Assembly (NCBI GenBank): GCA_963729625.1
Contig: CAVSOU010000007.1
Span: forward strand, 480,001 to 544,000
Length of the DNA stretch: 64,000 nt
Direction of reading: 5' to 3'
Source of the DNA: an uncultured bacterium
Lineage (GTDB): Bacteria > Chloroflexota > UBA5177 > JANWHV01
Shown piece by piece: positions 2,911 to 24,989 of this stretch (position 1 is the first letter of the stretch; the number at the start of each line of letters is the position of its first letter). The notes under the pieces were generated by a model, which had not been told where the DNA came from, did no database searches, and saw only the letters and a list, made by a program, of their open reading frames with translations. Made by a program: the position numbers and the translations under genes.

Positions 2911-4248
2911 TCAGGCGACTTCCAGGCGTTCGCGCGCGTACCGCCGCAGCGTCTCCAGCAGGCAGTAGCGCGGCTGATCGCGCAGGTCCGCCTGCACTAC
3001 GGAGGCTTCGACCAGGCGCGCCAGCAGATCCGGGACCTCACCCGGCGCGAGCGGCGGTTCGGCGCAGACGGCTTCCGCCGATTCGAGCGTAAACCAGCCG
3101 GGAAACGCGGCGAGACGCAACCACAAGATGCGCTCAGGCTCCGTGAGCAGCTCGTAGTCCCAGTCCAGCATCGCACGCAGCGTCTGATGGTGCCCGGGCG
3201 AGCTCGGGCCTGTCGCATGGAGAAAATCGGACCTATCTGGTAACCGGTCGGCCACGACACGCACCCCCAGGCTGGCTACTCTCGCCGCCGCCAGCTCCAG
3301 GGCGTGCGGCAATCCGTCCAGGTGGGCGCAGATACGACTGACGGCCTCGGCGTTGTCCTGGGAGAGCACGAAATCAACCTGCGCGGCCCTGGCCCTCTCC
3401 ACGAAGAAGTGAATGGCGTCGACCGCGGCCAGGTCCTCCACACGTGGAAGAGGGTCGAGCGAGGGGACGGCAAGCGGTGCGAGACGGAACAGCCGCTCGC
3501 CGGGCAAGCCGAGGACGCGGCGGCTTGTCGCGAGGATCTGCAGCGTGGGGCATGCGCCTAGGAGCGTGCCGGCGAGCCGAGTGCACTCGTCCCGCACGTG
3601 CTCGCAGTTGTCAAGCACGAGCAGGAGCGTCCGGGGGCGCAGCGCCTCGACAAGCGCCTCGAGCAGTCCCCGGTCCGCGGGTGGGAGAATGCCGAGCATC
3701 TCGGCCAGCGCCTGGGGCAGCACGGCCGGCTCGCTCAGTGAAGCAAGCTCCAGGAGCCATACACCATCGCCGTAGCGGCCGCGCACGCCGGCCGCGACTT
3801 CAAGGGCAAGGCGCGTCTTGCCCACCCCACCAGGGCCTGTAATCGTGACCAGCCGGCCCTGCTGGAGCAGGGCCGCGGCCTGCGCGATGACCGGAAGGCC
3901 GATGTAGTCGTCGAGAGGTGACACCAGATTGCCTCGGGCGGGAGCCCGTTTCGCGGCCGGCCGCGCCTTCTGCACGCAGTCGCCTTCGCCGTAGAGCGCC
4001 GATGCCGGCCGGGGCTGGGTCACGCGCGCAAGTATCAGTAAGGCCGCGCGATCCGTCTCCGTGAGGTCGAGGGCCAGTGCCAGTCGGCCGGCGGTGTCTC
4101 GGTAGGGTTGGTGCACGCCTCTCTCGAGGGCGCGGACGGTCCGCTTGCTGACTCCGGCTCGTGCTGCCAACGTCTCCTGCGTCATTCCGCGGGCCAGCCG
4201 GTGGCGGCGCAAGACCAGCCCAAATGGTTCGACAACAACTTCACCCAT
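2911..4248 (-). CDS. XRE-HTH + NB-ARC ATPase regulator, apparently C-terminally truncated
   Basis: FGLVLRRHRLARGMTQETLAARAGVSKRTVRALERG (XRE HTH), GPGGVGKT, LVLDNCEH, LDGLPHALELAA. Ends at LLETLRRYARERLEVA with no TPR region. ATG 4248 is preceded by GAGG. Confidence 0.8.
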   Translation of the reverse strand: MGEVVVEPFGLVLRRHRLARGMTQETLAARAGVSKRTVRALERGVHQPYRDTAGRLALALDLTETDRAALLILARVTQPRPASALYGEGDCVQKARPAAKRAPARGNLVSPLDDYIGLPVIAQAAALLQQGRLVTITGPGGVGKTRLALEVAAGVRGRYGDGVWLLELASLSEPAVLPQALAEMLGILPPADRGLLEALVEALRPRTLLLVLDNCEHVRDECTRLAGTLLGACPTLQILATSRRVLGLPGERLFRLAPLAVPSLDPLPRVEDLAAVDAIHFFVERARAAQVDFVLSQDNAEAVSRICAHLDGLPHALELAAARVASLGVRVVADRLPDRSDFLHATGPSSPGHHQTLRAMLDWDYELLTEPERILWLRLAAFPGWFTLESAEAVCAEPPLAPGEVPDLLARLVEASVVQADLRDQPRYCLLETLRRYARERLEVA

Positions 4249-4594
4249 GTGGCACCTCGCGGAGTGATGGAAGATGCCGATCGCCCAGACCTCGGTTGCG
4301 GTCGAGGATGGGCCTGCTTCCGCACGCAAGCAGCCCCTGCCGCATCTATGGTGCCATATCTCGCGCCGGCGTGGTGTTGACCTCACGTGCAACCTGGCTT
4401 GCACGCGCCGCTCCGACTGAATCAGCCACGGAATGCAGGGGCCGTGCCGAGAAGTGTTCGATGGCTTCGACAAGCGAAGGCGCTTGATTCAGCTCCGGTT
4501 GATGCCATGGACAGACAGTATTCGTGTGCGACGGCTCATTGGTGTCCGGCACTCTCCCGCAGTACGTGGGACGCGGGACAAGGGGCGATCGGAC

Positions 4595-7500
4595 TTAACC
4601 GGCGGCGTGTGCCAGGAGACGAGATCCGTGGCGCAGCGACTCCACGCCTGCGGCAATCGGCGTCTCCGCGATCTTCTCACTGGGCCGGCCAAGATAGTAG
4701 CCCTGAACGCCCTGCACGCCGCGCGGGAGCGTAACCCCTCCCGGGCCGCACTGCCGAACGAAGTCGAGCATCTCCCGTGTCTCGATGCCCTCGGCAATCA
4801 CGTAGGCGCCCATTCCGCTCGCGATGGAGATGATGCCCGCGAGCACGGCCCTCGCGGTCCTGTTCGTGAGTGCTCCATGTACCACGCCGCTATCCACCTT
4901 GATGAAGTCCATCGGAAGCTGGCTCAGCATCTCCAGCCCCGCGTTGCCGGCTCCCGTGTCGTCAAGCGCCAGCCTGAAGCCCGACCCGCGCAATCGCTTG
5001 GCATCACGCACGACCATGGCCAGACGCGCCATCGAGCGCTCCGTCAGCTCGAGCACGACACGCTCCGGTGCCAGCCCCGCTGCGCGCACGGCGCGCTCGA
5101 GGCTATCGTGCGCCAGCAGTCCGTGGTCGAGCGTTTGTGGCGAGATATTGATGAACAACAGCGCGTCGGGCGGAAGCTCCGCGGCCCTGCCCAGGATGGC
5201 GCGCCTGCAGACTGCGTCCAGGTCCTGCGCCCGCCCCATCTTTTCGGCGATATCGAATGCTTCCAGTGGACCGGCCAGGCCGAGCTCCGCGGGAGGCCTG
5301 GCCAGCGCCTCGTACGCAAACACGGTGCCCCGGGCCACGTCCCAGATCGGCTGGAACGCCACGCCCATGATCTGCTCGCTGATCAGTCTGTGTACGATCT
5401 GGCGCTGCGAGGAGGAGCTGATTGACGCACTGTCCTTCACCTCGTCGTACGTCGCGACTCTGTTGCGGCCACGCCGCTTTACGTCCTCTAGAGCCGCGCG
5501 TGCCTGTTGCTGCAAGGTGTCCGAGTCCGTATCTCCCATCGCGAGCGCGGCGACGCCGACACTCACGGTCGCTCCGGCCAGCCTCAGCTCGACTTCCCGG
5601 CGAAGGTGTTCCATGCTGGTGCGCGCCTCCGCGGGCCCGGTATGCGGCAGAATCAGGGCAAACTCGTCGCCGTGCACCCGGAAGGCGCGTGCCTGCCGGC
5701 AGGTATCCCGCAACATGCCGGCGACCTGCGTCAGGATGCGATCGCCGTGCGCCTGACCGCGCCGGTCGTTGATCAGCTTGAACTCGTCGACGTTTATCAG
5801 GGCCAAGGCGACTTGCTCTCCGTGGCGTGCGGCACGCTCGAGCTCTCGCTGCAGCTCTTCGCGGAACCAGCGATGGTTCCCCAGGCCGGTCAGGCCGTCG
5901 GTGAGGGCCGCGCGGGAGAGCTGGCGGTTCACACGCTGCAACGCAGCCATGCTCTCCTTGGTCTGCCTGACATATTGGCGCTGCACCCGGTGCATCATGA
6001 ACGCCGGCAAGGTGAACACGAGGGCGCCCAGATACCCTGTCTCGGCATAGGCGACGCCCAACAGGAGACCCACACCGCAGAGGGCCACGTAGTGCCCGGC
6101 GAGCCAGCGGTACTGGGCCAGCCAGGTTGAGCGTGCCTGCTCCCCCTCGCTCAGACTGAGCGCAGCGGCAACCAATCCCGTGTCGATCAAGAAGTATGCC
6201 GCCGCCGCCATCGCCCCCGGTGCGGCCAGTCCCGGCAAGGACCGCGCTGTGAGCGGGACGCCGGCGACTTGAATCAGCAACGCGGGCGCGAAGCCCGCCA
6301 GCACATGGGTGGCCCAGTTGTACGCCGCCCGGTGCAGGTGCTCGATATGCCGGCCACAACGGAAATGATGGGCGAGTGCGACCGCGGCGCTGACGCACGC
6401 GACGCCCGGAATGCCGCTCAGCAACGCGGCCGCAAACACGAGGCTGACGGACACGGAGACCGTGCCTCGCCCGTAGAGGTCGACCTGCGCCACTTCGGCG
6501 AGCACGGCCAGGGCCATAAAGAGCCAGATTGCCCCCGGCGCTACCTGTACACCTTGCCGCAGGCCGATCGCGGAGACGGCTGCCCCAGCGACGATCACGG
6601 TGGCGACGAACACCCATTGCAGCCAGGAGCGCTCGGCAGGCTCGCCGGGCAGCTGCGGCGGAGCGGGCGGGTTGGAGAGCTCGGGCTCCGCGCTCGCTTC
6701 GCCCGCTACATGGTCCGCCGGCATCCCCCGGCCCAGCGTTGCCGGAAGCGCGTTTGGCGCCTGAAGCGTTTCTGCGGAGGTGCGGCCCGGGTCGTGGGGC
6801 CCTGGCTTCGCTTCAATCCGTCCGCCAGGCACATCGGCCGCACAGACCACACAGTTCCGTCCTCTTGCCTTCGCCGCATAGCACGCCAGGTCGGCAGCTT
6901 GCACGAGGTCCCTGGCGTTCTCGCCGTCTTGCGGATAGCCCGCCACGCCCAGGCTCATGGTCACGCCTATGGGCTCGGCGCTGGTGGCCACCGTGAATCT
7001 CGCCGCCGCCACCGCCTGCCGCAGGCGTTCCGCCAGGGCCTCGGCCTCGGCAGGCTCGCGCTCGGGGGCGACCACGGCAAATTCTTCGCCGCCGAAGCGG
7101 CCGGCCACATCATATTCACTCGCGGTCTCCCGGATGACCCTGCCGATTCCTGCCAGCACCACGTCTCCTGCGAGGTGGCCGTACGTGTTGTTGATGTCGC
7201 GCAGCAAGTCGAGATCGGCCATGATCAGGGCCAGAGGCCTGCCGAAACGGCGGGCTCGTTCCAGTTCGGCGTCGAGCTGCAGGTTGAAGTGTCGCGCGTT
7301 GTCGAGTCCGGTCTTGCCGTCGATGTTTGCTTCATGTTTCAGCTGGGGAACCATCAGCGCTTGATAGATCAACACCAGCGGTGAGAGTGCCGCCACGGTG
7401 TACCAGGGCTCCACCTGCCAGAGCGCGGCAAGCACGAGGCCCATGAGGGCCATGACCAGGTCGAGGGTGACGCTCGTACTCTCCATCACGCCGGATTCGC

Positions 7501-8017
7501 GCCAGGACACTCCCCGCGCCAGGACCAGGGCGAGGCCCAGCAGCAGGTGGTTGAGGATCACATAGGCTATCGCCGTGAGCAGTCCGGCAGCCACGCGCGG
7601 CGGCACAATGCCGCCGGGGACGTCCACGTCGATCTGCAGGTCGAGCCATCCGGCTCCCAGGCCGCCAAGGCTGTACATGGAGAAGTTGAACGGCTGCAGG
7701 TACCAGCTGCGTAGGTGAGGGCTATCGACCCATCGCTCCCTGATCCACTCGATCGCGTGCGGCACGGCGACGAGGAGGATCACCAGGAGCGGCGGCAGGA
7801 GGAGGGCGCCGGCGAAGAAGAAAATGGGGCTGGCATAGAAGAGTATGTGATTCGGCGCTTCGGCCTTGAAGAGCTGCGCGAGGGTGGCGAACACGGCGAG
7901 CGCGGCGAACGTCTCCCAGGTCACCGGCGTCGCGCTGAACGAGTGCAGCGCCGCCGCGGACAGACCAATAGCCAGCAGCATTACGGAGCCCACGTAGGTC
8001 CAGGCCGGCTTCGACAT
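4595..8017 (-). CDS. Membrane-sensor diguanylate cyclase/phosphodiesterase: TM block-GGDEF-TM block-degenerate GGDEF-EAL
   Basis: Hydrophobic N-terminal ~225 aa; DGKTGL, DLDLLRDINNTYGHLAGD, RFGGEEF; second TM block; DGLTGL...RVHGDEF; YEALARP, ELTE, LDDTGAG, IAEGIET. RBS GGAAAGGA. Confidence 0.92.
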   Translation of the reverse strand: MSKPAWTYVGSVMLLAIGLSAAALHSFSATPVTWETFAALAVFATLAQLFKAEAPNHILFYASPIFFFAGALLLPPLLVILLVAVPHAIEWIRERWVDSPHLRSWYLQPFNFSMYSLGGLGAGWLDLQIDVDVPGGIVPPRVAAGLLTAIAYVILNHLLLGLALVLARGVSWRESGVMESTSVTLDLVMALMGLVLAALWQVEPWYTVAALSPLVLIYQALMVPQLKHEANIDGKTGLDNARHFNLQLDAELERARRFGRPLALIMADLDLLRDINNTYGHLAGDVVLAGIGRVIRETASEYDVAGRFGGEEFAVVAPEREPAEAEALAERLRQAVAAARFTVATSAEPIGVTMSLGVAGYPQDGENARDLVQAADLACYAAKARGRNCVVCAADVPGGRIEAKPGPHDPGRTSAETLQAPNALPATLGRGMPADHVAGEASAEPELSNPPAPPQLPGEPAERSWLQWVFVATVIVAGAAVSAIGLRQGVQVAPGAIWLFMALAVLAEVAQVDLYGRGTVSVSVSLVFAAALLSGIPGVACVSAAVALAHHFRCGRHIEHLHRAAYNWATHVLAGFAPALLIQVAGVPLTARSLPGLAAPGAMAAAAYFLIDTGLVAAALSLSEGEQARSTWLAQYRWLAGHYVALCGVGLLLGVAYAETGYLGALVFTLPAFMMHRVQRQYVRQTKESMAALQRVNRQLSRAALTDGLTGLGNHRWFREELQRELERAARHGEQVALALINVDEFKLINDRRGQAHGDRILTQVAGMLRDTCRQARAFRVHGDEFALILPHTGPAEARTSMEHLRREVELRLAGATVSVGVAALAMGDTDSDTLQQQARAALEDVKRRGRNRVATYDEVKDSASISSSSQRQIVHRLISEQIMGVAFQPIWDVARGTVFAYEALARPPAELGLAGPLEAFDIAEKMGRAQDLDAVCRRAILGRAAELPPDALLFINISPQTLDHGLLAHDSLERAVRAAGLAPERVVLELTERSMARLAMVVRDAKRLRGSGFRLALDDTGAGNAGLEMLSQLPMDFIKVDSGVVHGALTNRTARAVLAGIISIASGMGAYVIAEGIETREMLDFVRQCGPGGVTLPRGVQGVQGYYLGRPSEKIAETPIAAGVESLRHGSRLLAHAAG

Positions 8018-8276: not shown

Positions 8277-9857
8277 CTAGCCCCAGTAGTCGCTGCCCCA
8301 GCTTGCTGAACCCCAACTGGCCGAACCCCAGCTGGCTGAACCCCAGCTGGCTGAACCCCAACTGGCCGAACCCCAACTGGCCGAACCCCAACTGGCCGAA
8401 CCCCAACTGGCCGAACCCCAACTGGCCGAACCCCAGCTGGCCGCCGGATTGCCGGTCTGAATCGAGGCTGCCGGGGCCACACCGACGTTGGCGCTTGCCG
8501 TGCTGGGGTTCGCTACAGCCGCCGCCACATTGACCTCACCGGCACCCACCCCGCTGGTCGAGGCCACCGGCGAGGCCGTGGCCGTCAGGCGGTACTTCAC
8601 CTGATTCGGGGTCAAGCCGGGTTGGGCCTGCAGCAGCAGGGCCACCGCCCCGGAGACCATCGGCGCCGCCATCGACGTGCCGGACATGCGGAAGTAGTTA
8701 CTGTTGACGATGTTCGCGGGATGAGCGGTCGCCAGCGTATCGGAGGGACTGGCCAGGACGCTGACGATGTTGACTCCTGGCGCCACCAGATCCGGCTTGT
8801 TCATTAGGGACGTAAGCCCCGCCGTCGTGGAGATCGGGATGGTGCCAAATGAGGAGAACGATGCCAGGGTGTCGTCGCTCTGGTTTACCGTACCCTGGTC
8901 GTTCACCGCGCCCACGGTGATCGCGAAGGGGTCGTTGGCCGGGGCGAACAGCACCCCGGCGTTGGTGTTCCCGTTGTTGCCGGCTGAAACTACCACTACG
9001 ATCCCGGCATTCCAGAGCGTTTCCACCGCGGCATCCAGCGGATCCACCTGGTAGCTGTCGGCCACGGTGCTGTTCAGCGACAGGTTGACCACCCGGATGT
9101 TGCCGGTCGTCCGGTTGTTATACACCCACTGCAGACCGTTGACCACGTCGGACACGGAGGCCATGCCCTGATCGTCACTGATCTTGACGTCGATGAGATT
9201 GGCCTGGGGAGCGACGCCGATATAGGCCCCGGCAGAGTTGGCACCGTTTCCGCCGATGATCCCGGCTACATGGGTGCCATGGCCGTAGGGATCACCGCCG
9301 AAAGTCGTCCTGCTATTGATAATCTTCATGGCGACCATGTGCTCTTCGATAGCCGACGCCATGCCGCTGTCCACCACCGCGACGCCAACTCCCTGCCCCT
9401 GATACTGGGACCAGAGGGAGCCGGCGCCAATGGACTGCGGATAGACGTCATTGAGCGTCGCCGCGTTGCAGCAGCTGTAGCTCGACTTGACCACCGGCGC
9501 GTCCAGCGACACCCAGCGCACGCCGGGCATGGCGGCCAGACGGGGCACCGACCGGGCCGGCAGCCGCACGGCCAGGGCGTGGATGATCGGAAGCCGGCGC
9601 GTCACACGAGCGCCCAGACCGTCCAGCCCCCAGTTGACGCTCTGCCCGGCGTCCCGCAGCTGCACGATCACGCCGACCTGGGCGTCGGGGTGCGCCGCAG
9701 CCAGCTGCAGTAGGGCGGGCTGGGCGCGCAGCGGTGCCGCCGCCTGCACCGGAGAGCGTCCTTGCAAGGGCAGGCAGGCCGCTAGGCCCAGCAGCAGGGC
9801 GACACACAATCTGGGCAGGCTAACCGACCGGTTCACTGTTCCATCTCGCGCACTCAA
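8277..9857 (-). CDS. Secreted S8 (subtilisin-family) serine peptidase with C-terminal (ASWGS)x10-DYWG tail
   Basis: Signal peptide (VQA-A) and prodomain. Catalytic motifs VAVVDSG, HGTHVAG, SAGN, GTSMAAP. AGGAGG precedes the TTG start. Confidence 0.95.
   Translation of the reverse strand: MSARDGTVNRSVSLPRLCVALLLGLAACLPLQGRSPVQAAAPLRAQPALLQLAAAHPDAQVGVIVQLRDAGQSVNWGLDGLGARVTRRLPIIHALAVRLPARSVPRLAAMPGVRWVSLDAPVVKSSYSCCNAATLNDVYPQSIGAGSLWSQYQGQGVGVAVVDSGMASAIEEHMVAMKIINSRTTFGGDPYGHGTHVAGIIGGNGANSAGAYIGVAPQANLIDVKISDDQGMASVSDVVNGLQWVYNNRTTGNIRVVNLSLNSTVADSYQVDPLDAAVETLWNAGIVVVVSAGNNGNTNAGVLFAPANDPFAITVGAVNDQGTVNQSDDTLASFSSFGTIPISTTAGLTSLMNKPDLVAPGVNIVSVLASPSDTLATAHPANIVNSNYFRMSGTSMAAPMVSGAVALLLQAQPGLTPNQVKYRLTATASPVASTSGVGAGEVNVAAAVANPSTASANVGVAPAASIQTGNPAASWGSASWGSASWGSASWGSASWGSASWGSASWGSASWGSASWGSASWGSDYWG
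8292..8441 (-). repeat. 15-bp x10 coding tandem repeat (ASWGS)
   Basis: CCCCA recurs every 15 bp from 8296 to 8431. Variation between units is synonymous in the peptidase frame (AGC/AGT, TCG/TCA, GCC/GCA). Confidence 0.97.
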
Positions 9858-10029
9858 TGGGTCCTCCTTTGCGCTCTACACCTGGATTGCGCGTGTGCAG
9901 GACGGCTCCCAGATTCATTTCCCAGGAGATACCATTCCTGCTCCACACGATTGTACTTTGGAGGCAAGGGCTCGAACACCCCTAAACGAGGGGGCACACT
10001 CTTGCTAGCCCGTCTGGGTCGTCGGTTGC

Positions 10030-10705
10030 ATGGCGACGCCGATACGCGCGCGAGCGCGGCCAGCGAGGCGCGACTGGTGAAGCCGCAATCGGCGACGATG
10101 CCGGCCAGTCGACGCGCACCCACGACCTGCCGCACGCGGCGCGCGAGCACGGCAGCCAGGGCGGCTTCTCGGTGCCGGCCGCGCCCGAGCACGTAGGTGA
10201 TCACCTGGCCCGTGCCGGTATCCACGGCCAGGTAGAGGCGATAGCCGCGTAGCCGCCGACTGCGTCCACCCGCCCACCCTTTGAGGAAGCGCGTCAGCTT
10301 GCCCCGGCCCCAGTACGGCAGCTGGTGGGCATCCAGGGCCACCCACACCCGCCCGGAGCGGCTCGTCAGACTGGCCTAGTAGGCGGTTTCGACCGACCGC
10401 CGCACATCGTGGGCGGAGAATGCGCGCACACTCCGCGCCAGCGTGCGCGCACAGGGCAGGCGGCGCAGACCCAGCAGCACCGGCAGTAAGGGTTCCGCCA
10501 GCAGCCGCAAATGAAACGGCCGCCCGCTGCCCCGCCAGGCCAGCACCAACCAGAGCAACGCCAGGCTCAGACTGGAGAGGCCGCGCTTCGTCCGGGCCAA
10601 AAAGCGCTCCAACCCCAGCCCTTGCGCATACACCAAGAGCGCGGGCAGCGGCACGACGTTCGTTGGTCCGCTCGCCGACATCCGGCCGCTTGGTACACTT
10701 GCCAT
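10030..10705 (-). pseudogene. Inactivated DDE transposase fragment (IS4/IS1380-like), in-frame stop and 3' truncation
   Basis: ORFs 10376-10780 and 9854-10348 share a frame and are separated by TAG at 10376-10378. Motifs VALDAHQLPYWG, GYRLYLAVD and IVADCGF resemble the first two catalytic Asp regions; no Glu region follows. Family assignment and 3' limit are approximate. Confidence 0.65.
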
Positions 10706-10879
10706 GAGGGATCGCCTTCCTGGTTCCGGCTTTGATACTACCTTCCAGGATGCGCGATCCCTCCGTATTGCGAGGCTCAACTGTCCAATCTACGCTAGCA
10801 CTTTGGCGCGGCCTATCGCATCGGACGCCAGGCGGATGGGCACCGGCGTTATGACCAGGCCTCAGGCAGTTGGTTGCAT

Positions 10880-11404
10880 TTAGGAGCCCCAGTTGGCGTT
10901 TGCATGCACCGCTTGCGCGACGACGGTCGGAACCACCACCGTGGTGATGGCCTGGCCGCTCAGGCCCGACACCGTCGACGCCTGGTACAGCACGGTTACC
11001 ATATCGGTTGACAGCACCCTCGCCGTCACAGAAACGGCCACGGCCGGGCCGCTCACGCTCGCCGTGGTCACGACGGTGTATGTTCCGGGGCTGCCGTCGG
11101 CTACATAGGTGTACGATTCGTTCGCGCCGGTAAGCAGCTCACCCGTCACGGCGCCACCCTTAGGACCGTGGATAGCGTATGTGACGCACTGCACCTGCGA
11201 GCTTGCCGCCGATATCGTGGCGACGACCTGGATCAGTGTGGTGGACGAGCCGGACGCCGTGGGCGCGGAAACGAGCAGAATCGGGTCACGCCGGCTGGCC
11301 ACGGCGGCGTGCGCGCCCTGGGTCTGCGGGAGGATCCCGCCCACGGTGCCCGCCGCTATCGCCAGACCAGCCAGGATGCGTGTGATGCCTGTCAGCTTTG
11401 TCAC
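10880..11404 (-). CDS. Secreted beta-rich protein (RRDP motif) ending in NANWGS
   Basis: GGAGG then GTG; signal peptide ending AHA-A; Thr/Val/Ser-rich mature domain; clear paralog at 20926-21444. Confidence 0.88.
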   Translation of the reverse strand: MTKLTGITRILAGLAIAAGTVGGILPQTQGAHAAVASRRDPILLVSAPTASGSSTTLIQVVATISAASSQVQCVTYAIHGPKGGAVTGELLTGANESYTYVADGSPGTYTVVTTASVSGPAVAVSVTARVLSTDMVTVLYQASTVSGLSGQAITTVVVPTVVAQAVHANANWGS

Positions 11405-12215
11405 GTATAACCTCCATTACCGCCGCGGCACGAATGCATCCGTCTTGCCTTAACAACCCAGCCCGGGAGCGGCAGGCGGGGGCTAGCTGAATCCCGTCGC
11501 ACGGTGCCGGCCCTCCACGAGAACCCCCCGCCACGCGCGGGTGCCCCGTCCAGGACTGGCGCACGCATGCCGGGCTTCTGCCTGGTCCGGCTTCCAGCCG
11601 GTGTTGCTAAGGCGAGCGGCGGCTCCCACGGCTGCGGCGAGCCCGTGGTCACCACCTCGGCGCAGCCGGCAGGCCGCCCTCCCCGCGGGAAAGGGACGGT
11701 GTCCGTCCCTCGCGCCAAGGCCCCTTCCGCAGCACGCTCCCTGACCCCAGCACCCCGGGTTCCGGTCCGATGCACGATCTCGCACCAGGAGCCGCGGACA
11801 ATACGGTCGCGCAGCGCACTGCTTCGCTAGCGTAAGCCAGTATGGGCTCGGCGCACATCCTCGTTCGAGTAAGGCCGCACCTGGCCTGTTCAGGGGGGGT
11901 AGCTGGAGGCTGCGCCACAGTACCACGCACTCTCACCAGCCGCCGAAACCTTGAGCCATGCTACAAGTGGGCGGTGCGGCGGTGGCGGGCCGGGGTGAAT
12001 GGCGTGAGTGGCACGCCATACGTGCCATTGTGAGCCGTTACTTCCCATAGTACATTGGGCCGTGACAGGCCATGTGCACAGTCATCGCGCTAGCACGGCT
12101 TGCGTGCCCCTTGCGAGGACGCGAAGCCTGGCGACGCTTGGCGTTTTTTGCATGCCGGACGGGCGTTCCAGCCATACGGGATCGGTCGTCGGCAACGAGC
12201 TGGAAGGATTGTGTC

Positions 12216-15200
12216 GTGAGCAGCCTGGCACGGTTTGTCAGTGCGTGCCATCTGAGAAGCTCTGAGTGCCGATCGTGGCGACCAAGGCCGGCCATTCCGC
12301 TGGCCGTGCTCATGGTGGTGATGCAAACGCTGGTGCCGCTCGCGGCGACAGCGCCACAAACCGCGCACGCCGACGACACGCCCTGTGTCGTGTCCAGCCC
12401 TGCCGATGACGGCAGTATCGGGACCCTGCGCACGATCGTCGGCCTGGGCGTGTGTCCCGAGATTACCTTCGACACCGCGCAGATGGGTGCCGCCACGATC
12501 ACGCTTACCTCCGGCCCGATCCAAATTGGCACGGGCGACAGCTCAAATCTGCAGACGGTGGCGATAGACGGCGGCAGCGGCGTGACCATCCAGGGAGATG
12601 ACGTAGACTCGATCTTTACCGTCACGACCGGCGGTATTCTGACACTCAATAACCTGACTATTAGTGGCTCCGGCGATAGCGCCATCTGCAACAATGGCAC
12701 GCTAAACGTCGAAGGCTCCGTCCTCTCTGGCAACAGCGGTTTGAATGGCGGCGGCGCCATCTTCAACGACGGGTCCCTCGGCGCCGTCGCCACGCTCACC
12801 GATACGGCCATCACGAGCAACGCGGCGCCCATGGGCGGCGCCATTTACAATTATGGCGACGGGGGTACGGTCACGCTGACAATTGCCAACAGCACGCTGA
12901 GCGGCAACAGCACGTTCGGCGGCTCCGGCGGCGCTATCTCCGACGTCGGCGGTCCCGGCGGCGCCATCTACAACGATGGCGGCGCAGGCGCTGTGACTGT
13001 GGCAATTGCCAACAGCACGCTGAGCGGCAACAGCGCGAACTCCGGCGGCGGCATCTACAACGACGGCGACGGAGGCACGGTGAGTGTGACGATCGCCAAC
13101 AGCACGCTGAGCGGCAACAGCGCGCTCGTGGTCAGGCGGCACAGGATTCCGATTGTCGGCGCCGGCGACGGGCTCTACAACACGGCGGATGGTGGCGACG
13201 CGTCCCTGGCCGTGCACAGCAGCATCCTCGCCGACGGCGCGACCAACGAGTGCGCGGGCGACAGCTCGATCACCGACGACGGCTACGACCTCGCGCTTGG
13301 GACGACGGACGGCAACGGCTGCGCCCTGGACTCCGGCGACGAGGACGTGTCCACGGACGACCCGAGCTTCAGCGGCGGCGAACCCACGAATGGCGAGCTG
13401 GCCGATAATGGCGGAGCGACCCAGACCATCGCACTCGGTCCTGGGAGCATCGCCATCGGCAACGGCGACTGTCAGGCGTACACGGACTCGACGAGCGAAG
13501 ATGTGTATGCGGCCGTCACCACGGATCAGCGAGGGGCCGGATACCCGCGCAAGGATCCTTGCGACATCGGCGCCTTCGAGGCCGCCGGCGATGCGGTAAC
13601 GGCAACGGACACCCCGACGGCCACGGGCACAGCCACCTTGACTGATACCTACACACCGAGTGACACGGCTACGCTCACCGAGCCACCGAGCGACACCCCG
13701 ACGGACACGGCCACGGACACGGCCACCACGATCGATACCTCTACACCGAGTGACACGGCGACGGACACAGCCACGGTCACCGAGCCAGCGAGCGACACAC
13801 CGACCGCGGCCGATACATCCACGAACACGTACACGCCGAGTGACACGCCGACGGGCACGGCCACGGCGACCGATACCTCTACACCGAGTGACACCCCGGC
13901 GGACACGGCCACGGTCACCGAGCTACCGAGCGATACCAGTACGGCTTCCAATACACCGGCTCCCACCAACACAGCAAGCGACACCCCGACTGTCATCGGC
14001 ACGGCAGGCTATACCCCAGCAGCTACGGACACGCCAAGCAACACAGCGACGGATACCTACACGGCCAGTGCCACACCGAGCAACACGCCGACCGTCACCA
14101 ATACGCAGACAGATACGCCCACCAGCACGTACTCGCCAACAGCCATGCCGACCGATACCCACCCCCCAGCGGATACCTCGACGGGCACAGATACGGCGAG
14201 CGTGACCGCGGTCGCCACAGGCACAGCCAGTAGTACGCCGGTCCCGACAGACACGGCCACCGACACGCCCGCTGACACCAGCACAGCCAGCGACACGCCA
14301 ACCCCTACGGACACGGCGAGCGGTACGCCTTCGGCGACTCACGCGCCCACGAGCACGGTCACCGGCACGCCGACGGATACGGCTACGAGCACGCCGACGG
14401 CTACGGCTACCAGCACGAGGACGGAGATGGCGGTCGATCCGCCGGTCAATCTGCCCACGAGCGCGCCGTACGTGCTGTCATCGCCAACCGCGACTGGGGC
14501 GGCCGTGACCTCGAGCACGGCTACACCAGCCGACACCGGCTCCGCCCTTCCGCAGTTCACCAGTACGGCGATGCCAACGGCCACTGGCAGCAGCGCCTCC
14601 GCGGACGCGGCCACCGCCGTGCCACCCGTCCCCACCCCGGCAGGGCACGCCTCGGCGCTGGCAACGAACGGGACCATGCCCGCAACGTTCCAGGGTGGTC
14701 CGGCGATGGCCGCGGTACTGAGCGGCTCCACGCAGATCGCCCTGCGCGTCGCCTCGGATGCCGTGGCCCGCGGACAGACCCTCACCTTGAACGCATCGCT
14801 TGAGTCGTATGGCGGCTCATTGACAGGCAGCGTGACCTTCAAGGAGGGCAAGCTGGTGCTGGGCACCGCCAGCGTGCACGACGGAGTGGCCTTCCTGACG
14901 GTGACCATGCAGGCTGTCGGCCCCCACCATATCGTGGCCGTATATGACGGCCCGCACGGCTTGGTGGTAAGCACGACACCCCTCTCCATCACGGTCGGGC
15001 GCGCACCGAGTGCGCTGAGCGTCTGGAACCAGAAGCACACGGTAGTGGGCGGGCGCAAGAACGCCTGCCAAGCGCTCATGAGTGCCGGTATCCCCTCGCA
15101 GTCGGGCTGCGAGGCCGTCTTCAGCACCTGGCTGCCCGGGGCCAGGGTCACCGATACGCTCAGCTATGCCGACGGCACGCGCCAGACCTACACCGGCACC

Positions 15201-15374
15201 GCCGATGGCACGGGGCATCTACAGCACGCATTCGTGGTGAAGTACGAGCCCTCGCTCCACGCGAGGCACGGGGAGCCCGCTACCAGGGCCTGGATCAGTG
15301 TGGTGGCTACGAGCAAGGATGGTACCGAGACCAAGTCGGCCTGCCTGCGCTTCGCCGTGCTACCCAAGTTCTGA
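12216..15374 (+). CDS. Large secreted adhesin-like protein: GGAI beta-helix repeats, choice-of-anchor Q domain, Thr/Pro/Asp stalk, Ig-like domain
   Basis: GGAAGGA before GTG 12216; AHA signal site; repeated GGAIYN and IANSTLSGNS; LADNGGATQTIALGPGS...DQRG...CDIGAFE; long TDTP/TATP tract; GSVTFKEGKLVLGTASV Ig-like fold. Confidence 0.85.
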   Translation: MSSLARFVSACHLRSSECRSWRPRPAIPLAVLMVVMQTLVPLAATAPQTAHADDTPCVVSSPADDGSIGTLRTIVGLGVCPEITFDTAQMGAATITLTSGPIQIGTGDSSNLQTVAIDGGSGVTIQGDDVDSIFTVTTGGILTLNNLTISGSGDSAICNNGTLNVEGSVLSGNSGLNGGGAIFNDGSLGAVATLTDTAITSNAAPMGGAIYNYGDGGTVTLTIANSTLSGNSTFGGSGGAISDVGGPGGAIYNDGGAGAVTVAIANSTLSGNSANSGGGIYNDGDGGTVSVTIANSTLSGNSALVVRRHRIPIVGAGDGLYNTADGGDASLAVHSSILADGATNECAGDSSITDDGYDLALGTTDGNGCALDSGDEDVSTDDPSFSGGEPTNGELADNGGATQTIALGPGSIAIGNGDCQAYTDSTSEDVYAAVTTDQRGAGYPRKDPCDIGAFEAAGDAVTATDTPTATGTATLTDTYTPSDTATLTEPPSDTPTDTATDTATTIDTSTPSDTATDTATVTEPASDTPTAADTSTNTYTPSDTPTGTATATDTSTPSDTPADTATVTELPSDTSTASNTPAPTNTASDTPTVIGTAGYTPAATDTPSNTATDTYTASATPSNTPTVTNTQTDTPTSTYSPTAMPTDTHPPADTSTGTDTASVTAVATGTASSTPVPTDTATDTPADTSTASDTPTPTDTASGTPSATHAPTSTVTGTPTDTATSTPTATATSTRTEMAVDPPVNLPTSAPYVLSSPTATGAAVTSSTATPADTGSALPQFTSTAMPTATGSSASADAATAVPPVPTPAGHASALATNGTMPATFQGGPAMAAVLSGSTQIALRVASDAVARGQTLTLNASLESYGGSLTGSVTFKEGKLVLGTASVHDGVAFLTVTMQAVGPHHIVAVYDGPHGLVVSTTPLSITVGRAPSALSVWNQKHTVVGGRKNACQALMSAGIPSQSGCEAVFSTWLPGARVTDTLSYADGTRQTYTGTADGTGHLQHAFVVKYEPSLHARHGEPATRAWISVVATSKDGTETKSACLRFAVLPKF
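12885..13121 (+). repeat. Three identical 27-bp internal repeats (ANSTLSGNS) in the adhesin
   Basis: GCCAACAGCACGCTGAGCGGCAACAGC at 12885, 13008 and 13095. Confidence 0.9.
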
Positions 15375-16099: not shown

Positions 16100-16483
16100 A
16101 TGTCGCGACAGATAGCAATCGCAGAAGTTGACGAGATGCTCCGCGCGCTGTTTCGCGAGTTCATCATCCTTGACGGATATGACCCACAGGTCGTGCAGCC
16201 GACCACGGATGCTGTGGCGGGGCTCGCCGCGATGGGCCCAGCCGTGCTGGTCCCGGGTGCGCGCCTGCAGGATACGGATCCCGGCTTGCGGCTGCTCCGG
16301 GCTATTTGGCGAGAGCCAGCGCTGGCTCACCTGCCGGTCATCCTGTGCACGACCGACGCGGACCGCCGACGATTGCCGCGCGAACACGGGGAGCAGCCTT
16401 GCTGCCAGCTGCTGCGCGAGCCGTTCAGTTTGGCCGAGTTCGAAACAGCATTCACGGCCGCGTTGGCTGCGGCGTCACCATAG
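16100..16483 (+). CDS. Stand-alone atypical (pseudo-)receiver domain protein
   Basis: CheY-like pattern IAIAEVD...GYD...PAVLVPG...GLRLL...LPVILCT...LREPF. The phospho-Asp and conserved Lys positions are substituted. Confidence 0.7.
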   Translation: MSRQIAIAEVDEMLRALFREFIILDGYDPQVVQPTTDAVAGLAAMGPAVLVPGARLQDTDPGLRLLRAIWREPALAHLPVILCTTDADRRRLPREHGEQPCCQLLREPFSLAEFETAFTAALAAASP

Positions 16484-20180: not shown

Positions 20181-20832
20181 TCGGCGCCGCCGACCCGCAG
20201 AGCTCGCGCAGGTCCATAGCGGCTTCCGGCAGGAGGCCGTAACATGCCTCTCATCCCCTTAATTCGCGAAGACTCCTGATCGCGTCTACTTCTTGCAGCC
20301 TACACCAACAGGGTAGCCATGATCACTCCCCCAACAGGGTTGGCAGGTGGAGCGGCGTTATTGCGGACGCGATTGGTCGCCGCTGTGCCACGCGGGAGTT
20401 GAACCAACCACTCGCCGCGCTCTGGCCGATGTCCGGATCGCCTGCGTCTGACGGAGCCACAAGGTTGTGGAGGCATGCGCTGACGGTGGACCGTGCTGTG
20501 CGCCTTCACGCCACGTGGACGTCTGATCGGCCATTGGCCAAGAGGCCCTACGCCGGCAGCGAGGCTGCGGCTCCATGTCGCACGTTTGCAGACCCGCGAG
20601 GCGTCGCCAGACTGGCTAGCAAGAGCGGGCCACCTCGTTCGGGTGATGTGTCGGTCAGGCGTCACGCCTACTATTGGGTTGGAGCGCGGACGTATCGCTA
20701 AGGAAGTGCTCACAACGCCGGCGTGATGGCCATGCAGACGGTGGCTGCGTTCGCCGCGCTCGTCCGAGGAGGGATACAGGTAGAAAGCCAGAGAGGGAAC
20801 ACTGTCCCGGTCGCGATTTGTGTCAAGAGCAG

Positions 20833-20895
20833 GCCAACTGGGGCTCCGCCAACTGGGGCTCGGTAAATTGGGGTAGCGACTACTGAGGGAACTAA
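20833..20895 (+). pseudogene. Remnant of a second WGS-repeat tail (ANWGS ANWGS VNWGS DY*GN*)
   Basis: Matches the S8 tail (xxWGS)n-DYWG; the TGA at 20884-20886 sits where a Trp TGG is expected. No intact peptidase ORF lies upstream. Confidence 0.75.
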
Positions 20896-20925
20896 CCCCG
20901 GATCTCGATGAAAGGGAATGCATGT

Positions 20926-21444
20926 ATGAAGAAGACAATCTCGGGCCTCGTCCGCGGCACGGCATGTGCGGTAATCGTGGCAAGTGGCCTGGCGGGGTTG
21001 TGGCAGCACACGCCCGGCGCCCATGCCGCCGTGGCCAGCCGGCGTGACCCCATTCTGTTGATTTCCACGCCTACGGCGTCTGGTGCCACGCTGACTCTGG
21101 TTCAGGTCGTGGCCTCCATCTCCGCGAACAGCACGCAGGTGAAAGGTGTCAGCTTCGCCATCCACGGTCCAGTCGGTAGCTCGCTGACGAAAGAACTCTT
21201 GACCGGCGCGGGCGAAACTTACACGTACACGGCGGACCGCGTGGACACCTCCTACTCGACCGTGACCACCGTTACCGTGAGTGGGGCGGCCGTGCCGGTG
21301 ACCGTGACCTCCAGTGTCCTGGCAACCGATATGCAGACGGTGCTGTACCAGTCGACTGCCGTGGCTGGCATGAGTGGCAAGGGTATCACCACGACGGTAT
21401 GCCCGGTCGCCCTGGCCAATACCAATGCCGGCTGGGGGTCGTAG
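20926..21444 (+). CDS. Secreted beta-rich protein (RRDP motif) ending in NAGWGS
   Basis: Paralog of 10880-11404: GAHAAVASRRDPILL identical; AIHGP, ELLTGA and TDMxTVLYQ shared; signal peptide; AAAGGG before ATG 20926. Confidence 0.88.
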   Translation: MKKTISGLVRGTACAVIVASGLAGLWQHTPGAHAAVASRRDPILLISTPTASGATLTLVQVVASISANSTQVKGVSFAIHGPVGSSLTKELLTGAGETYTYTADRVDTSYSTVTTVTVSGAAVPVTVTSSVLATDMQTVLYQSTAVAGMSGKGITTTVCPVALANTNAGWGS

Positions 21445-21504
21445 GCAGCCCTCACAGCGGCCGTGCAATAGCAGGTAGTGAAGGTAATGAACGGAGAAAC
21501 AATC

Positions 21505-21687
21505 GTGAGTGGACAGAGGAAGAATCGATCGTTGCCGGTGCTCTGGCGCCGGATCGCCGTGTTGGCCCTGGTAATTCTTGGCACAGGCCTCTTCATCAGC
21601 CAGCCGGCACATGGCCTGGGCGGCACGAATACGGCAGCATGTGCGACATGTCACGTCGACAAGCCGTCCGCCGGCTGGGGGTCGTAG
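21505..21687 (+). CDS. Small secreted peptide precursor (~60 aa), predicted mature LGGTNTAACATCHVDKPSAGWGS
   Basis: GGAG before GTG 21505; basic n-region, hydrophobic h-region and AHG cleavage site; C-terminal AGWGS identical to the upstream gene; contains CxxCH. Confidence 0.72.
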   Translation: MSGQRKNRSLPVLWRRIAVLALVILGTGLFISQPAHGLGGTNTAACATCHVDKPSAGWGS

Positions 21688-22181: not shown

Positions 22182-24989
22182 ATGTCACTACGTGCCCGGG
22201 CCTATGTCGGCAGCGTGCTTGGCGCCAGTGTCGCGCTGAGCGTGCTCGCGCTGCTTCGCTTCGCCCCAACGCTCGCGCTGTGTGAGACCTTTGCCGCCTT
22301 GACCGTCCTGGCCAGCGTGGCCCAGCTGTTCAAGGCCGAAGCCCCCAACCACGTGCTGCTCTACGCCAGCCCCATCTTCTTCTTTGCCGGTGTCCTGCTG
22401 CTGCCGCCCTTCCTGTTCGTTCTGTTGGTGGCTGTTCCGCACATGGTCGAGTGGGGTGTCGAGCGATTGCGGCACAGTCCTCACCTCCGTGCCTGGTACT
22501 TGCAGCCGTTCAATATCGCAATGAACTGGATATCCGGGCTGAGCGCGTACTGGCTGTACGCGCAGGTCAGTGGTGAGAACACCGCCAGCGTGCTTTCGAC
22601 CACCGTGCTCGCGGGTCTGGCCGCCGTTGCCTGCTTCGTCGTCCTCAACCACATCCTGCTGGGGCTGGCCCTCGCCCTCGCGCGTGGCGTGAGCTGGCGC
22701 GAGTCGGGCATGTTCGAGCTGTGGAGCCTGCTCACCGACCTGGTGCTGGCCTGCATGGGCCTGGTCGTGGCGGAACTCTGGCGGATACATCCCGCGTTCG
22801 TCGTGCCGGCCCTCGCTCCCCTGGTATTGATGTACCAGTCCCTGATGATCCCACGGTTGAAGCAGCAAGCCGAGATCGACGCCAAGACCGGTCTGTTCAA
22901 CTCCGGGCATTTCAAGACCATGTTTGGCGCCGAGCTGGCCCGGGCCACGCGGTTTGATCGGCCGCTCACGGTGATCATGGCCGACCTGGACCTGCTGCGT
23001 AACGTCAACAATCAGTACGGCCATCTCGCCGGTGACGTTGTTCTCGCCGGGATCGGCAAAATCATCCGTCAGACGATGCGCGAGTACGATATCAGCGGCC
23101 GATTCGGCGGTGAAGAATTCGTCCTGGTTGCCCCTGAAGCAGGTCTTACAACGGGCGAAAGCCTGGCAGAGCGACTGCGGCAGGCGGTAGCCGATGCTCG
23201 TTTTCCGATCGGGGCAGACGCCGCGCCGATCGGCGTGACGATGAGCCTGGGAGTAGCGTGCCACCCCCTGGACGGGAACACCGCGGAAACGTTGATCTAT
23301 GCAGCGGATATGGCGGTCCTCGAAGCCAAGACCAGGGGACGCAACTGCGTGGTGCGCGCCGCGGACCTGTCATGGGACCGCCGCGTCGCTCAGCCGGCCC
23401 CGCCTGAGCCCGATGCGGCCTCCGCCGGCGCCGTGACGCCGCAGCGATCGTCGCTGCAAGCAGAGGGGCCTCAGATACCGCCCGTCAGGCTCCTTGCGCC
23501 TGAAAGCCTGCGGAGCGCCTCTCCTCCCGAGACAGCCGAGCCAGCGTATCCAGGGACAAAGGCTCTGCCCCTGCGCGCAGGCTGGCTCGGCCAGGGCGCG
23601 GAACGCGATGGCGCGGATCGCGATCTGCCGGTGAGCAGCCAACGCGCGACGCAGGCGCCACCGCGTCTCGCGCGAATGCTTCCCCAGCCTGGGGTGGCCG
23701 TGGCCACGATGCTGCTGGCCATTGGCACAGTGCTTGCGGGGGTGCGGTACGAGGACATCTCGCTGGGATTGCAGCCCTTCGGCGAGATCCTCACGGCCGT
23801 ACTCCTGGCCGCCACACTCGTTCTGACTTACCGGTATCCGATTCATATCCGCCTGCACCTCAAGGTGCAGGTGTCTACGATGGTCTACTACCTGGTGGCC
23901 GCGCTGCTGCCCCTATCGTTGGGCATGGGTGTTGCGGCGCTGGGCACCCTGCTGGGCGAAGTATCCGTGCGCCGGCAGCGCAAGCTCTACCCGAGCGATA
24001 TTGCCACGGCCGTCGGCCGATGGACGGTGTTGGTGTTTCTGGGCACCTTGGTAGCACATGTGCCCGCACAAGGAGATGTCGCCCTGGCGCCGTTGGCGGC
24101 CTGCGCGGTGGTGCTGGCAATGGGCGACCTCCTCACGTTGCCGCTGATCATCGCATCGATAACCGGTGAGCGCCCGCTTCGCGTGCTGCGCGCGCTGGCC
24201 ACGGACACCGCCGTGCCAGATGGCATCCAGTACTTGCTTGGCTTCCTGGCGATTCTCGCATCCCAGCGCGCGGCGTGGGTACTGGTTCTCTGTGCGGTGC
24301 CTGCCGTTCTCGTTTACCAGGCCACGAAAGCCATGCATGAGGTGCAGGACTCCACGCACCATCTCCTGGAGGGCATGGCCGACACGGTAGACCTCCGCGA
24401 TTCCTACACCGGGGGTCATTCGCGGCGCGTGGCGGACTTCTGCCGCCGCATCCTGGATGAACTGGATCTCATGGGCCCCGATGCCGAGATGATCGTCTCG
24501 GCCGCGCGCGTGCATGATATCGGCAAAATCGCCATTCCCGACGCGATCCTCATGAAGCCGGGGCCCCTGACGGGCGAGGAGCGCGCCCAGATGCAGACGC
24601 ACGCGGAGCGTGGCGCCGAGGTGCTGGCCCGCCATCGAGATTTCCGGCATGGCGTGGCTGTTGTGCTGCACCACCACGAGGCGTGGGACGGCAGTGGGTA
24701 TCCGCGCGGGCTCAAAGGGCTCGCAATCCCGTTCGGAGCACGGTTGATGGCCGTAGCGGACGCCTTCGACGCTATGACAAGCGACCGGCCGTATCGCGGC
24801 GCGATGTCAGCAGCAAAGGCGGCAAGTATCTTGCGGCAGGGACGGGGTCTGCAGTGGGATCCTCAAATGGTCGATGCGCTGTTGCGCTGCATCGATGTTC
24901 AAACCGTGCTGGCCGAGCTCGCGGTGCTGCCGAGCCCCGACTGCACGACAGCCCAACGCCCCTCCAGCACGTCCGCGGCAGGCGCTTGA
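22182..24989 (+). CDS. Membrane-sensor diguanylate cyclase/phosphodiesterase: TM block-GGDEF-TM block-HD-GYP
   Basis: N-terminal ~400 aa closely paralogous to 4595-8017 (QLFKAEAPNH, YASPIFFFAG, WYLQPFN, ARGVSWRESG); REYD I-site, RFGGEEF; YTGGHS, VHDIGK, HHEAWDGSGYP, DAFDAMTSDRPY. Confidence 0.93.
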   Translation: MSLRARAYVGSVLGASVALSVLALLRFAPTLALCETFAALTVLASVAQLFKAEAPNHVLLYASPIFFFAGVLLLPPFLFVLLVAVPHMVEWGVERLRHSPHLRAWYLQPFNIAMNWISGLSAYWLYAQVSGENTASVLSTTVLAGLAAVACFVVLNHILLGLALALARGVSWRESGMFELWSLLTDLVLACMGLVVAELWRIHPAFVVPALAPLVLMYQSLMIPRLKQQAEIDAKTGLFNSGHFKTMFGAELARATRFDRPLTVIMADLDLLRNVNNQYGHLAGDVVLAGIGKIIRQTMREYDISGRFGGEEFVLVAPEAGLTTGESLAERLRQAVADARFPIGADAAPIGVTMSLGVACHPLDGNTAETLIYAADMAVLEAKTRGRNCVVRAADLSWDRRVAQPAPPEPDAASAGAVTPQRSSLQAEGPQIPPVRLLAPESLRSASPPETAEPAYPGTKALPLRAGWLGQGAERDGADRDLPVSSQRATQAPPRLARMLPQPGVAVATMLLAIGTVLAGVRYEDISLGLQPFGEILTAVLLAATLVLTYRYPIHIRLHLKVQVSTMVYYLVAALLPLSLGMGVAALGTLLGEVSVRRQRKLYPSDIATAVGRWTVLVFLGTLVAHVPAQGDVALAPLAACAVVLAMGDLLTLPLIIASITGERPLRVLRALATDTAVPDGIQYLLGFLAILASQRAAWVLVLCAVPAVLVYQATKAMHEVQDSTHHLLEGMADTVDLRDSYTGGHSRRVADFCRRILDELDLMGPDAEMIVSAARVHDIGKIAIPDAILMKPGPLTGEERAQMQTHAERGAEVLARHRDFRHGVAVVLHHHEAWDGSGYPRGLKGLAIPFGARLMAVADAFDAMTSDRPYRGAMSAAKAASILRQGRGLQWDPQMVDALLRCIDVQTVLAELAVLPSPDCTTAQRPSSTSAAGA

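Follow-up and report, generated by a model that had tools for sequence, protein, structure and literature searches.

A 64,000-nucleotide stretch of DNA from an uncultured Chloroflexota bacterium, referred to here as the window, carries a subtilase gene (8277..9857, minus strand) whose product ends in ten tandem copies of the pentapeptide ASWGS. Together with the membrane protein gene that follows it, this gene belongs to a conserved module in which a secreted S8 protease with an aromatic-glycine repeat tail is paired with a membrane-bound synthase or hydrolase of cyclic di-guanosine monophosphate (c-di-GMP). The module is extended by c-di-GMP riboswitches in some lineages, by a peptide importer in others, and in a few by accessory secreted proteins that carry the repeat unit. 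This pairing points to a protease-linked signaling module.

The subtilase and its tryptophan-repeat tail

The 526-amino-acid protein is translated from a TTG start codon and comprises a predicted signal peptide, a prodomain-like N-terminal region, a catalytic domain and the tryptophan-repeat tail. Residues 154-438 match the Pfam family Peptidase_S8 (PF00082) with an E-value of 1.9e-45, and D163, H196 and S395, as well as the oxyanion residue N294, are invariant in an alignment of 32 homologues. Judged by this Asp-His-Ser triad and oxyanion asparagine, the protein is a member of the S8 family, and it looks active because all four residues are invariant among these homologues. No NCBIfam subfamily (mycosin, QhpE, PatA/G, CspBA or others) can be assigned, as all eight matches fall below their cut-offs; the best, T7SS_mycosin, scores 132.8 against a cut-off of 278.75.

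An AlphaFold2 (AF2) model built from the 32-sequence alignment has a mean predicted local distance difference test score (pLDDT) of 78 and is confident to approximately residue 467. A helix at residues 14-27 of this model is read as the putative signal peptide, and a confident alpha/beta region at residues 47-123 sits at the position of a subtilase prodomain. The closest solved sequence, that of Tk-SP (PDB 3afg), aligns through its prodomain and catalytic domain over residues 77-447 (E 1.8e-45). Neither Tk-SP nor the other solved relatives cover the tail, since all 37 matches end by residue 449.

The C-terminus reads NPA, ten ASWGS units (residues 473-522; 8292..8441, minus strand), DYWG (8280..8291, minus strand) and the stop codon (8277-8279), where DYWG corresponds to the last unit conserved in the family, SDYWG. 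Tandem Repeats Finder reports a period of 15 nucleotides, 9.9 copies and 93% matches at 8296-8443. Six of the 15 nucleotide columns vary among the ten units, including a serine codon switch from TCG to AGC, and every variant is synonymous. Only 10 of the 45 single-base changes that could occur in the consensus unit are silent, and the identity of the ten units at the protein level despite six variable columns thus argues for selection on the tail peptide. The array also follows the enzyme almost directly, because the AF2 model is confident to near residue 467. Both features had been noted in a preliminary description made from the sequence, which placed the array immediately behind the catalytic domain and took the synonymous differences as a sign of selection on the peptide; translation, repeat finding and the modeled domain boundary bear this out.

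Three simpler accounts of the tail were set aside. A chance repeat is ruled out by the synonymous-only variation and by the conservation of tryptophan units across 120 homologues. A precursor of a ribosomally made peptide that is modified after translation (RiPP) was rejected, there being no modifying enzyme among the 14 neighboring genes scanned. A known C-terminal sorting signal was likewise rejected: searches of Pfam and NCBIfam reveal no sorting or wall-binding module, DYWG closes the protein, and neither a hydrophobic segment nor a transmembrane-plus-basic tail comes after the motif.

A comparison of unit and copy number across homologues, suggested in the preliminary description, demonstrates that the tail is a property of the whole family. 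The 120 best database homologues come mostly from Chloroflexota metagenome bins and, leaving aside the protein of the window itself, are 46-77% identical to the query. Among these, 119 carry at least five C-terminal tryptophan residues at period 5, and the single exception is truncated. Inner units are identical within one protein and differ between lineages (ASWGS, SSWGS, VSWNS, VNWNS, VDWNS, VQWGS, VGWNT and others), whereas xTWGS as the first unit and SDYWG as the last are conserved. Eight units are by far the most common number (65 homologues), with seven in 17, nine in 9 and ten in 15, the last mainly from the window's clade, where 10-11 units are found.

In relatives from other phyla, aromatic or hydrophobic repeats of other kinds occupy this position. 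Arrays of SVVWGx, NAMWGT and DQALWG with period 6 occur in Acidobacteriota, where the WG-to-WG spacing is a multiple of six in 280 of 332 cases. Relatives from an actinomycete bin have ANWTx repeats, those from Firmicutes bins have NAYWE and NVFFE repeats, and two Chloroflexota genomes have GQTWTG repeats. The distribution is patchy: at E 1e-40, a match is found in 6 of 41 related genomes, the source genome included, and in none of four genomes of the same genus. The source bin is 87% complete. At one locus (L023:1-12119), four consecutive subtilases of approximately 670 to 1250 amino acids each end in 8 to 17 VNWGS units, and no sensor is seen there within the 12.7 kb examined.

Partner genes of tail-bearing subtilases

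Directly downstream of the window's subtilase lies the gene for a membrane sensor of 1140 amino acids (4595..8017, minus strand). As judged from Pfam matches, hydropathy and motifs, it consists of a multi-transmembrane (TM) module, a GGEEF domain, a second multi-TM module, a degenerate GGDEF domain and an EAL domain. A second sensor of 935 amino acids (22182..24989, plus strand), recognized in the same way, has an N-terminal TM module, a GGEEF domain, a second TM module and an HD-GYP domain. The N-terminal TM modules of the two proteins are 56% identical and are without a Pfam match. Both sensors have only short loops between TM segments and keep the GGEEF motif together with HD..GYP or EAL. 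In the LapD-LapG system, the cysteine protease LapG is paired with a degenerate GGDEF-EAL receptor that has a periplasmic domain. An analogy with this system was rejected, since the protease here belongs to the S8 family and the sensors retain their motifs and lack longer loops between TM segments.

The partnership of tail-bearing subtilase and c-di-GMP enzyme is conserved across phyla. We examined 105 loci, many of which are near-duplicates and not independent, and 90 of these hold an open reading frame (ORF) for a tail-bearing subtilase by the criterion used. In 59 of the 90, the sensor or its TM module has a homologue no more than 1.5 kb away, and in three more the distance is 1.5-6 kb; another 18 have no sensor homologue, and their flanks are short. 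The tblastn matches extend beyond the GGDEF domain to cover the TM module. Specifically, the match includes the N-terminal TM module in loci from Chloroflexota, Actinomycetota and Firmicutes, where the gene is usually immediately downstream of the subtilase. The GGDEF-GGDEF-EAL form present in the window recurs in all of the closest ASWGS- and SSWGS-type loci with enough flanking sequence (L085-L091 and L094).

Many relatives also carry c-di-GMP riboswitches. Of 23 related Chloroflexota loci, 10 contain matches to the c-di-GMP-I or c-di-GMP-I-GGC class, 18 in total and often in tandem. In seven of the 23 (L012, L014, L018, L020, L021, L095 and L097), the gene that they directly precede is the subtilase or a small ORF upstream of it. 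Eight acidobacterial loci contain none. The preliminary description had named the lack of a tie between tail-bearing homologues and c-di-GMP genes as grounds for abandoning its proposal. The tie was found, both in the proximity of the enzymes and in the riboswitches.

A peptide importer is added to the module in Acidobacteriota. At 23 acidobacterial loci, genes for an Opp/Dpp-type importer (two BPD_transp_1 permeases, an SBP_bac_5 binding protein and an oligo_HPY ATPase) lie between a MASE9-like HD-GYP-GAF-GGDEF gene and the subtilase. The importer cassette occurs in at least four gene orders, with the binding protein and its partners diverging down to approximately 45-55% identity. One such locus (L037) encodes, in order, a MASE9-like TM-HD-GYP-GAF-GGDEF protein, two BPD_transp_1 permeases, SBP_bac_5, an oligo_HPY ATPase, a subtilase with an SVVWG array, and a 250-amino-acid membrane protein. 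This last, stand-alone protein (L037:9776-10528) and its homologues resemble the N-terminal TM module of the sensor. With the SBP_bac_5 query, importer genes were not found in pentapeptide-type loci.

The acidobacterial partner has the same architecture as enzymes of type MASE9-HD-GYP-GAF-GGDEF, although its MASE9 score of 22.4 bits is just under the cut-off of 24.3. The second TM module and HD-GYP domain of the Chloroflexota sensors align to this partner. The portion consulted of the paper that describes the MASE9 architecture gives no ligand, and neither "protease" nor "peptide" occurs in it (bioRxiv 10.1101/2021.11.05.467447).

Finally, the repeat unit appears at the ends of other secreted proteins. 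The window encodes a 174-amino-acid secreted protein that ends in HANANWGS (10880..11404, minus strand), its 178-amino-acid paralogue that ends in NTNAGWGS (20908..21444, plus strand), and a 69-amino-acid precursor-like ORF with a hydrophobic signal-type segment, a short mature part and a C-terminal SAGWGS (21478..21687, plus strand). The preliminary description equated the subtilase unit with the terminal motif of its secreted neighbors. The motif does recur at their C-termini, but the match is not exact, with ANWGS and AGWGS sharing four of five residues with ASWGS. No Pfam family is found for the 174- and 178-amino-acid proteins or the small ORFs. The 174-amino-acid family has 382 representatives at E 1e-3, and among the 153 sequences inspected, an xxWG(S/L) end occurs in only seven, namely those of the window and the sequences closest to them. 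Members lie beside tail-bearing subtilases only in the source genome, L012 and L089/L091/L103, and the copies beside subtilases outside the source genome (L012, L089/L103) have no tryptophan end.

Small secreted proteins that carry and end in the unit of their cassette are found in the source genome and in at least three other lineages. Such ORFs with spaced units are 37-127 amino acids long and contain a signal peptide, the units and little else. Two families stand beside SVSWN-type subtilases (L095-L100, L104 and L106). The first combines a signal peptide with three or four spaced AVSWNS copies and terminates with DVSWNS, whereas the second has a lipoprotein-like signal and two SVAWN copies and terminates with RSVAWN. 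Both are present in L095/L097, and in L095 the AVSWNS-family ORF lies between a tandem riboswitch and the subtilase. A 37-amino-acid ORF ending in SVSWN stands in front of the subtilase in L096, and a 51-amino-acid ORF ending in SVSWNG follows a (K/S)VGWN tail in L030. Across loci, the motif copies in these ORFs are invariant while spacers and copy number vary.

A survey for unit-bearing ORFs that allowed one mismatch flagged ORFs with signal peptides in only 3 of 37 loci (L023, L095 and L097) and missed the SVAWN family; accessory precursors are thus specific to certain lineages. A stricter count of ORF ends with the tryptophan 3-mer of their own locus (14 own-type against 149 other-type, for 22 types in 87 loci) was not used, because six-frame noise in GC-rich DNA dominates it and one-residue variants are missed. 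The unit thus moves among proteins of the cassette, with accessory carriers that differ by lineage.

Possible functions of the tail

How might a repeat unit serve a module of protease and c-di-GMP enzyme? We propose that the subtilase cuts its own array and the tagged ends of other proteins to yield short tryptophan peptides that act on the c-di-GMP enzymes, a proposal that we hold to be plausible yet somewhat short of probable. The Trp-Gly unit would then be the working element of a protease-plus-sensor module wired into c-di-GMP. Exported with its signal peptide and prodomain, the subtilase would process its array and the unit-bearing ends of accessory proteins such as the 174-, 178- and 69-amino-acid products, and the resulting peptides would report the amount of exported enzyme, and hence cell density or confinement. 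In Chloroflexota, sensing of the peptides at or in the membrane would fall to the neighboring enzyme with its two multi-TM modules, of the GGDEF/HD-GYP or GGDEF-EAL type. In Acidobacteriota, the peptides would be imported by the Opp/Dpp-type transporter and act on the MASE9-like HD-GYP-GAF-GGDEF enzyme. In many relatives, c-di-GMP would feed back on the protease operon through the c-di-GMP-I riboswitches. We infer the cleavage, release and sensing in this scheme, as well as the sign of the loop.

The fullest form of the proposal is an enzyme-pheromone fusion. The subtilase would carry and release its own multi-copy autoinducer, joined by peptides from accessory precursors; MASE-type c-di-GMP enzymes would read the peptides, directly in the case of Chloroflexota and, in Acidobacteriota, once Opp has imported them; and riboswitches would close a positive loop. 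Taken as a whole, this chain is possible but doubtful.

Release of a ligand is favored by the precursor-like small ORFs and by the acidobacterial importer. Among the models considered, a peptide signal alone explains both the importer and small ORFs that have no cargo. The window's tail (residues 468-526) is modeled with a pLDDT of approximately 25 and no secondary structure, and would for this reason be accessible to a protease.

Parts of this arrangement resemble known systems. In the RRNPPA systems of Bacillota (Rap-Phr type), as described in the sections of the source consulted, a propeptide is exported by its signal peptide, the active peptide of 5-6 residues is usually C-terminal and sometimes present as internal repeats, extracellular proteases cut these C-terminal or internal and sometimes duplicated pheromones, and Opp re-imports them (PMC11343458). 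Small exported propeptides with a candidate C-terminal peptide appear to be encoded by the 69-amino-acid ORF and by the small ORFs of L096, L030 and L095/L097, and the Opp feature is present in the 23 acidobacterial loci of the subtilase family but not in the window. Unlike in RRNPPA systems, the largest array of units here sits on the protease itself, the neighbor is a c-di-GMP enzyme rather than a TPR-type cytoplasmic receptor, and the Chloroflexota cassettes are without an importer. There is no adjacent receptor of the TPR type (Rap, NprR, PlcR, PrgX or AimR), and the sole TPR match is in a STAND-type NTPase (102-2603) outside the cassette.

In Clostridioides difficile, the secreted protease PPEP-1/Zmp1 is under a c-di-GMP-I riboswitch and is co-regulated with its adhesin substrates. 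The similarity lies in the riboswitch before a secreted protease gene and in the co-regulation of the protease with proteins that carry its target motif. However, PPEP-1 is a metalloprotease rather than an S8 enzyme and has neither a repeat tail nor an adjacent c-di-GMP enzyme, and the window itself has no such riboswitch. No description of the tail or the module was found in the literature searched, whose coverage lacks most subscription journals.

Several observations weigh against the peptide-signal proposal. We know of no precedent for an enzyme that carries its own signal array. Ten of the 90 tail-bearing loci have no sensor homologue despite at least 3 kb on both sides, and most tail-bearing loci are without an accessory unit-bearing ORF by the survey above. 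The window contains no SBP_bac_5 or permease match at E 1e-8, and no match to RF01051 or RF03167 at the gathering score, nor in 9700-12200 and 20100-22300 at E-values up to 1. Two DDE_Tnp_1 transposase ORFs (9854..10780, minus strand; Pfam) separate the 174-amino-acid protein gene from the start codon of the subtilase, and this copy of the protease may be misregulated because the insertion sequence abuts that codon. The insertion occupies the place of the leader, where relatives have c-di-GMP riboswitches, and may have displaced the native one. Furthermore, the sharp peak in copy number and the conserved end units look like a constraint on length or fold and not like a free precursor array, and one AF2 model of a related tail is a confident pentapeptide-repeat beta-helix.

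These last points lead to the strongest alternative, which we consider possible though unlikely on present evidence: the tail is not cut and, either by itself or as a dimer, adopts the fold of a short beta-helix with a tryptophan core, of the quadrilateral pentapeptide-repeat type in Chloroflexota and of a hexapeptide type in Acidobacteriota. The helix would dock or tether the protease to the membrane module of the sensor, the membrane interface or a substrate, and accessory proteins that end in one unit would attach either to this partner or to the helix at its open edge. Eight units, the most frequent number, would make up two turns with four pentapeptides each; the inner units are homogenized, in contrast to the distinct and conserved first and last ones; and the acidobacterial spacings favor multiples of six. 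The beta-helix best explains the fixed number of units and the conserved ends. It is less easily reconciled with the 10-11 units of the window's clade, which are not a multiple of four; two turns would be very short for a stable helix; and the signal-peptide-plus-unit ORFs of 37-127 amino acids and the conserved Opp-type importer are left unexplained.

Structural comparisons bear on the beta-helix in both directions. The pentapeptide-repeat consensus has a small residue at position -2, N, S or D at -1, and a hydrophobic center. The tail likewise has period 5 and matches this consensus of the pentapeptide-repeat proteins (PF00805; MfpA, AlbG, Rfr23 and the SV2 luminal domain). For the (AVNWN)15 tail of L021, one of five single-sequence AF2 models is confident (77, compared to 57, 51, 42 and 38), with three-residue strands every five residues at pLDDT 85-96. 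A Foldseek search pairs this model with SV2 luminal domains and with pentapeptide-repeat proteins such as MfpA, AlbG and alr1298, and it superposes on SV2 and on MfpA (2bm7_B; TMq 0.65, root-mean-square deviation 1.5 over 73 columns). According to the part of the source consulted, AF2 over-predicts confident beta-solenoids for perfect repeats (PMC11795689). Profile scores remain below threshold, with 22.8 bits for the window's tail against Pentapeptide_2 (PF01469; cut-off 26.4) and 17 bits for the L021 tail against Pentapeptide_4 (PF13599; cut-off 38), and the window's tail has no PF00805 match at E-values up to 10. In contrast to known pentapeptide-repeat proteins, the tail has tryptophan at every center and mostly eight units, is modeled as disordered in the window, and is replaced in relatives by repeats of period 6 or with phenylalanine or leucine centers. 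The beta-solenoid or tether offered as an alternative in the preliminary description gains from the copy-number mode and the one pentapeptide-fold model, and loses from the low confidence of the window's own tail.

The array could instead be a C-terminal pro-region or pseudosubstrate whose unit is the preferred cleavage site. The tail would keep the enzyme latent or aid its export and would be trimmed on activation with no role in signaling, and the unit-bearing neighbors would be substrates or decoys. Such pro-regions are known in other subtilases, the unit is common to the tail and the ends of neighboring secreted proteins, the tail is predicted to be disordered, and the Opp-type importer could merely salvage peptides. 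We nevertheless judge this improbable. It does not account for the cross-phylum partnership with c-di-GMP enzymes and riboswitches or for units that are homogenized within proteins yet differ between lineages, and the AF2 model does not place the tail in the active site, a weak argument at this pLDDT.

A similarly poor prospect is a multivalent anchor that would hold the protease and the tagged small proteins, through stacking of tryptophan on sugars, to the cell wall or to a c-di-GMP-controlled exopolysaccharide matrix. The array is indeed C-terminal and multivalent, single units end secreted proteins of Ig-like size, and the window encodes a GT2 glycosyltransferase with an MshEN domain (25152-27188). 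However, Pfam and NCBIfam reveal no known wall-binding or sorting domain, the 37-amino-acid L096 peptide and the 69-amino-acid ORF of the window would be tags without cargo, the importer is left unaccounted for, and neither the repeat period nor the aromatic residue is constant across phyla. An amyloid-forming or cross-beta matrix segment, also raised in the preliminary description, is very improbable: a regular short repeat rich in serine, asparagine, glycine and aromatic residues in a biofilm-type c-di-GMP context is compatible with it, but nothing found speaks for it specifically, the arrays are short (35-55 residues) and attached to an apparently active protease, and no curli-, Fap- or TasA-type genes are seen among the 14 neighbors scanned.

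No single model explains both the small ORFs with the importer and the fixed unit number with the conserved end units. As a matter of speculation, an array that is folded at first and processed later would reconcile the two sets of facts. If the enzyme-pheromone fusion is correct, the module would represent peptide quorum sensing with a c-di-GMP output outside Bacillota. To our knowledge, few membrane (MASE-type) c-di-GMP enzymes have a known ligand, and hardly any peptide signaling is known outside Bacillota; the module offers a concrete candidate for both. Because the candidate ligand can be read from the gene (ASWGS in this case), the hypothesis is testable with synthetic peptides. Should the tail instead be a two-turn beta-helix with a tryptophan core, secreted enzymes would have a docking domain of a new kind, built as an unusual minimal solenoid.

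Other cassettes and neighboring genes

The source genome holds two further cassettes, in which the subtilase is decayed or frameshifted. In the first, which includes the 178-amino-acid paralogue, the 69-amino-acid ORF and the second sensor, a stub reading ANWGS-ANWGS-VNWGS-DY-stop (20833..20886, plus strand), located by repeat finding and translation, has no signal peptide and no catalytic-domain match upstream. It is probably what is left of the tail from a second subtilase gene that has been lost. The other (L007; C11:58456-63874) encodes a secreted protein ending in VSWGS, a subtilase with a (VNWGS)x7-DYWGS tail, and a GGDEF/HD-GYP sensor. The catalytic domain of this subtilase is split over three reading frames, which may reflect a pseudogene or an assembly error.

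Genome-wide, such repeats and gene ends are confined to these cassettes and to a partial duplicate of window positions 21400-21687 at C10:421034-421288. The duplicate contains the gene end encoding NTNAGWGS and a 94% identical copy of the 69-amino-acid ORF (C10:421082-421285) in an otherwise different neighborhood. The transposase element also has a second copy, 91% identical, at C11:630373-631119.

The region between and around the window's two cassettes is dense in c-di-GMP genes. A protein with periplasmic-binding-protein, PAS, GGDEF and EAL domains (16614-20180, minus strand) and an ORF with a weak receiver-domain match (16100-16483, plus strand) are encoded between them. The GT2 glycosyltransferase gene (plus strand) follows the second sensor, and its product, in which the glycosyltransferase is fused to the c-di-GMP-binding MshEN domain, is likely a c-di-GMP-activated exopolysaccharide synthase. 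An 1100-amino-acid protein with a Big_3_5 domain (12072-15374, plus strand) contains Gly/Asn-rich and Thr/Pro/Asp-rich segments encoded by tandem DNA repeats of 87 and 138 nucleotides, and is probably a large surface protein. Two genes for STAND-type NTPases flank the first cassette (102-2603, plus strand, and 2911-4473, minus strand), of which one is NB-ARC/TPR and the other HTH-AAA/NACHT-like.

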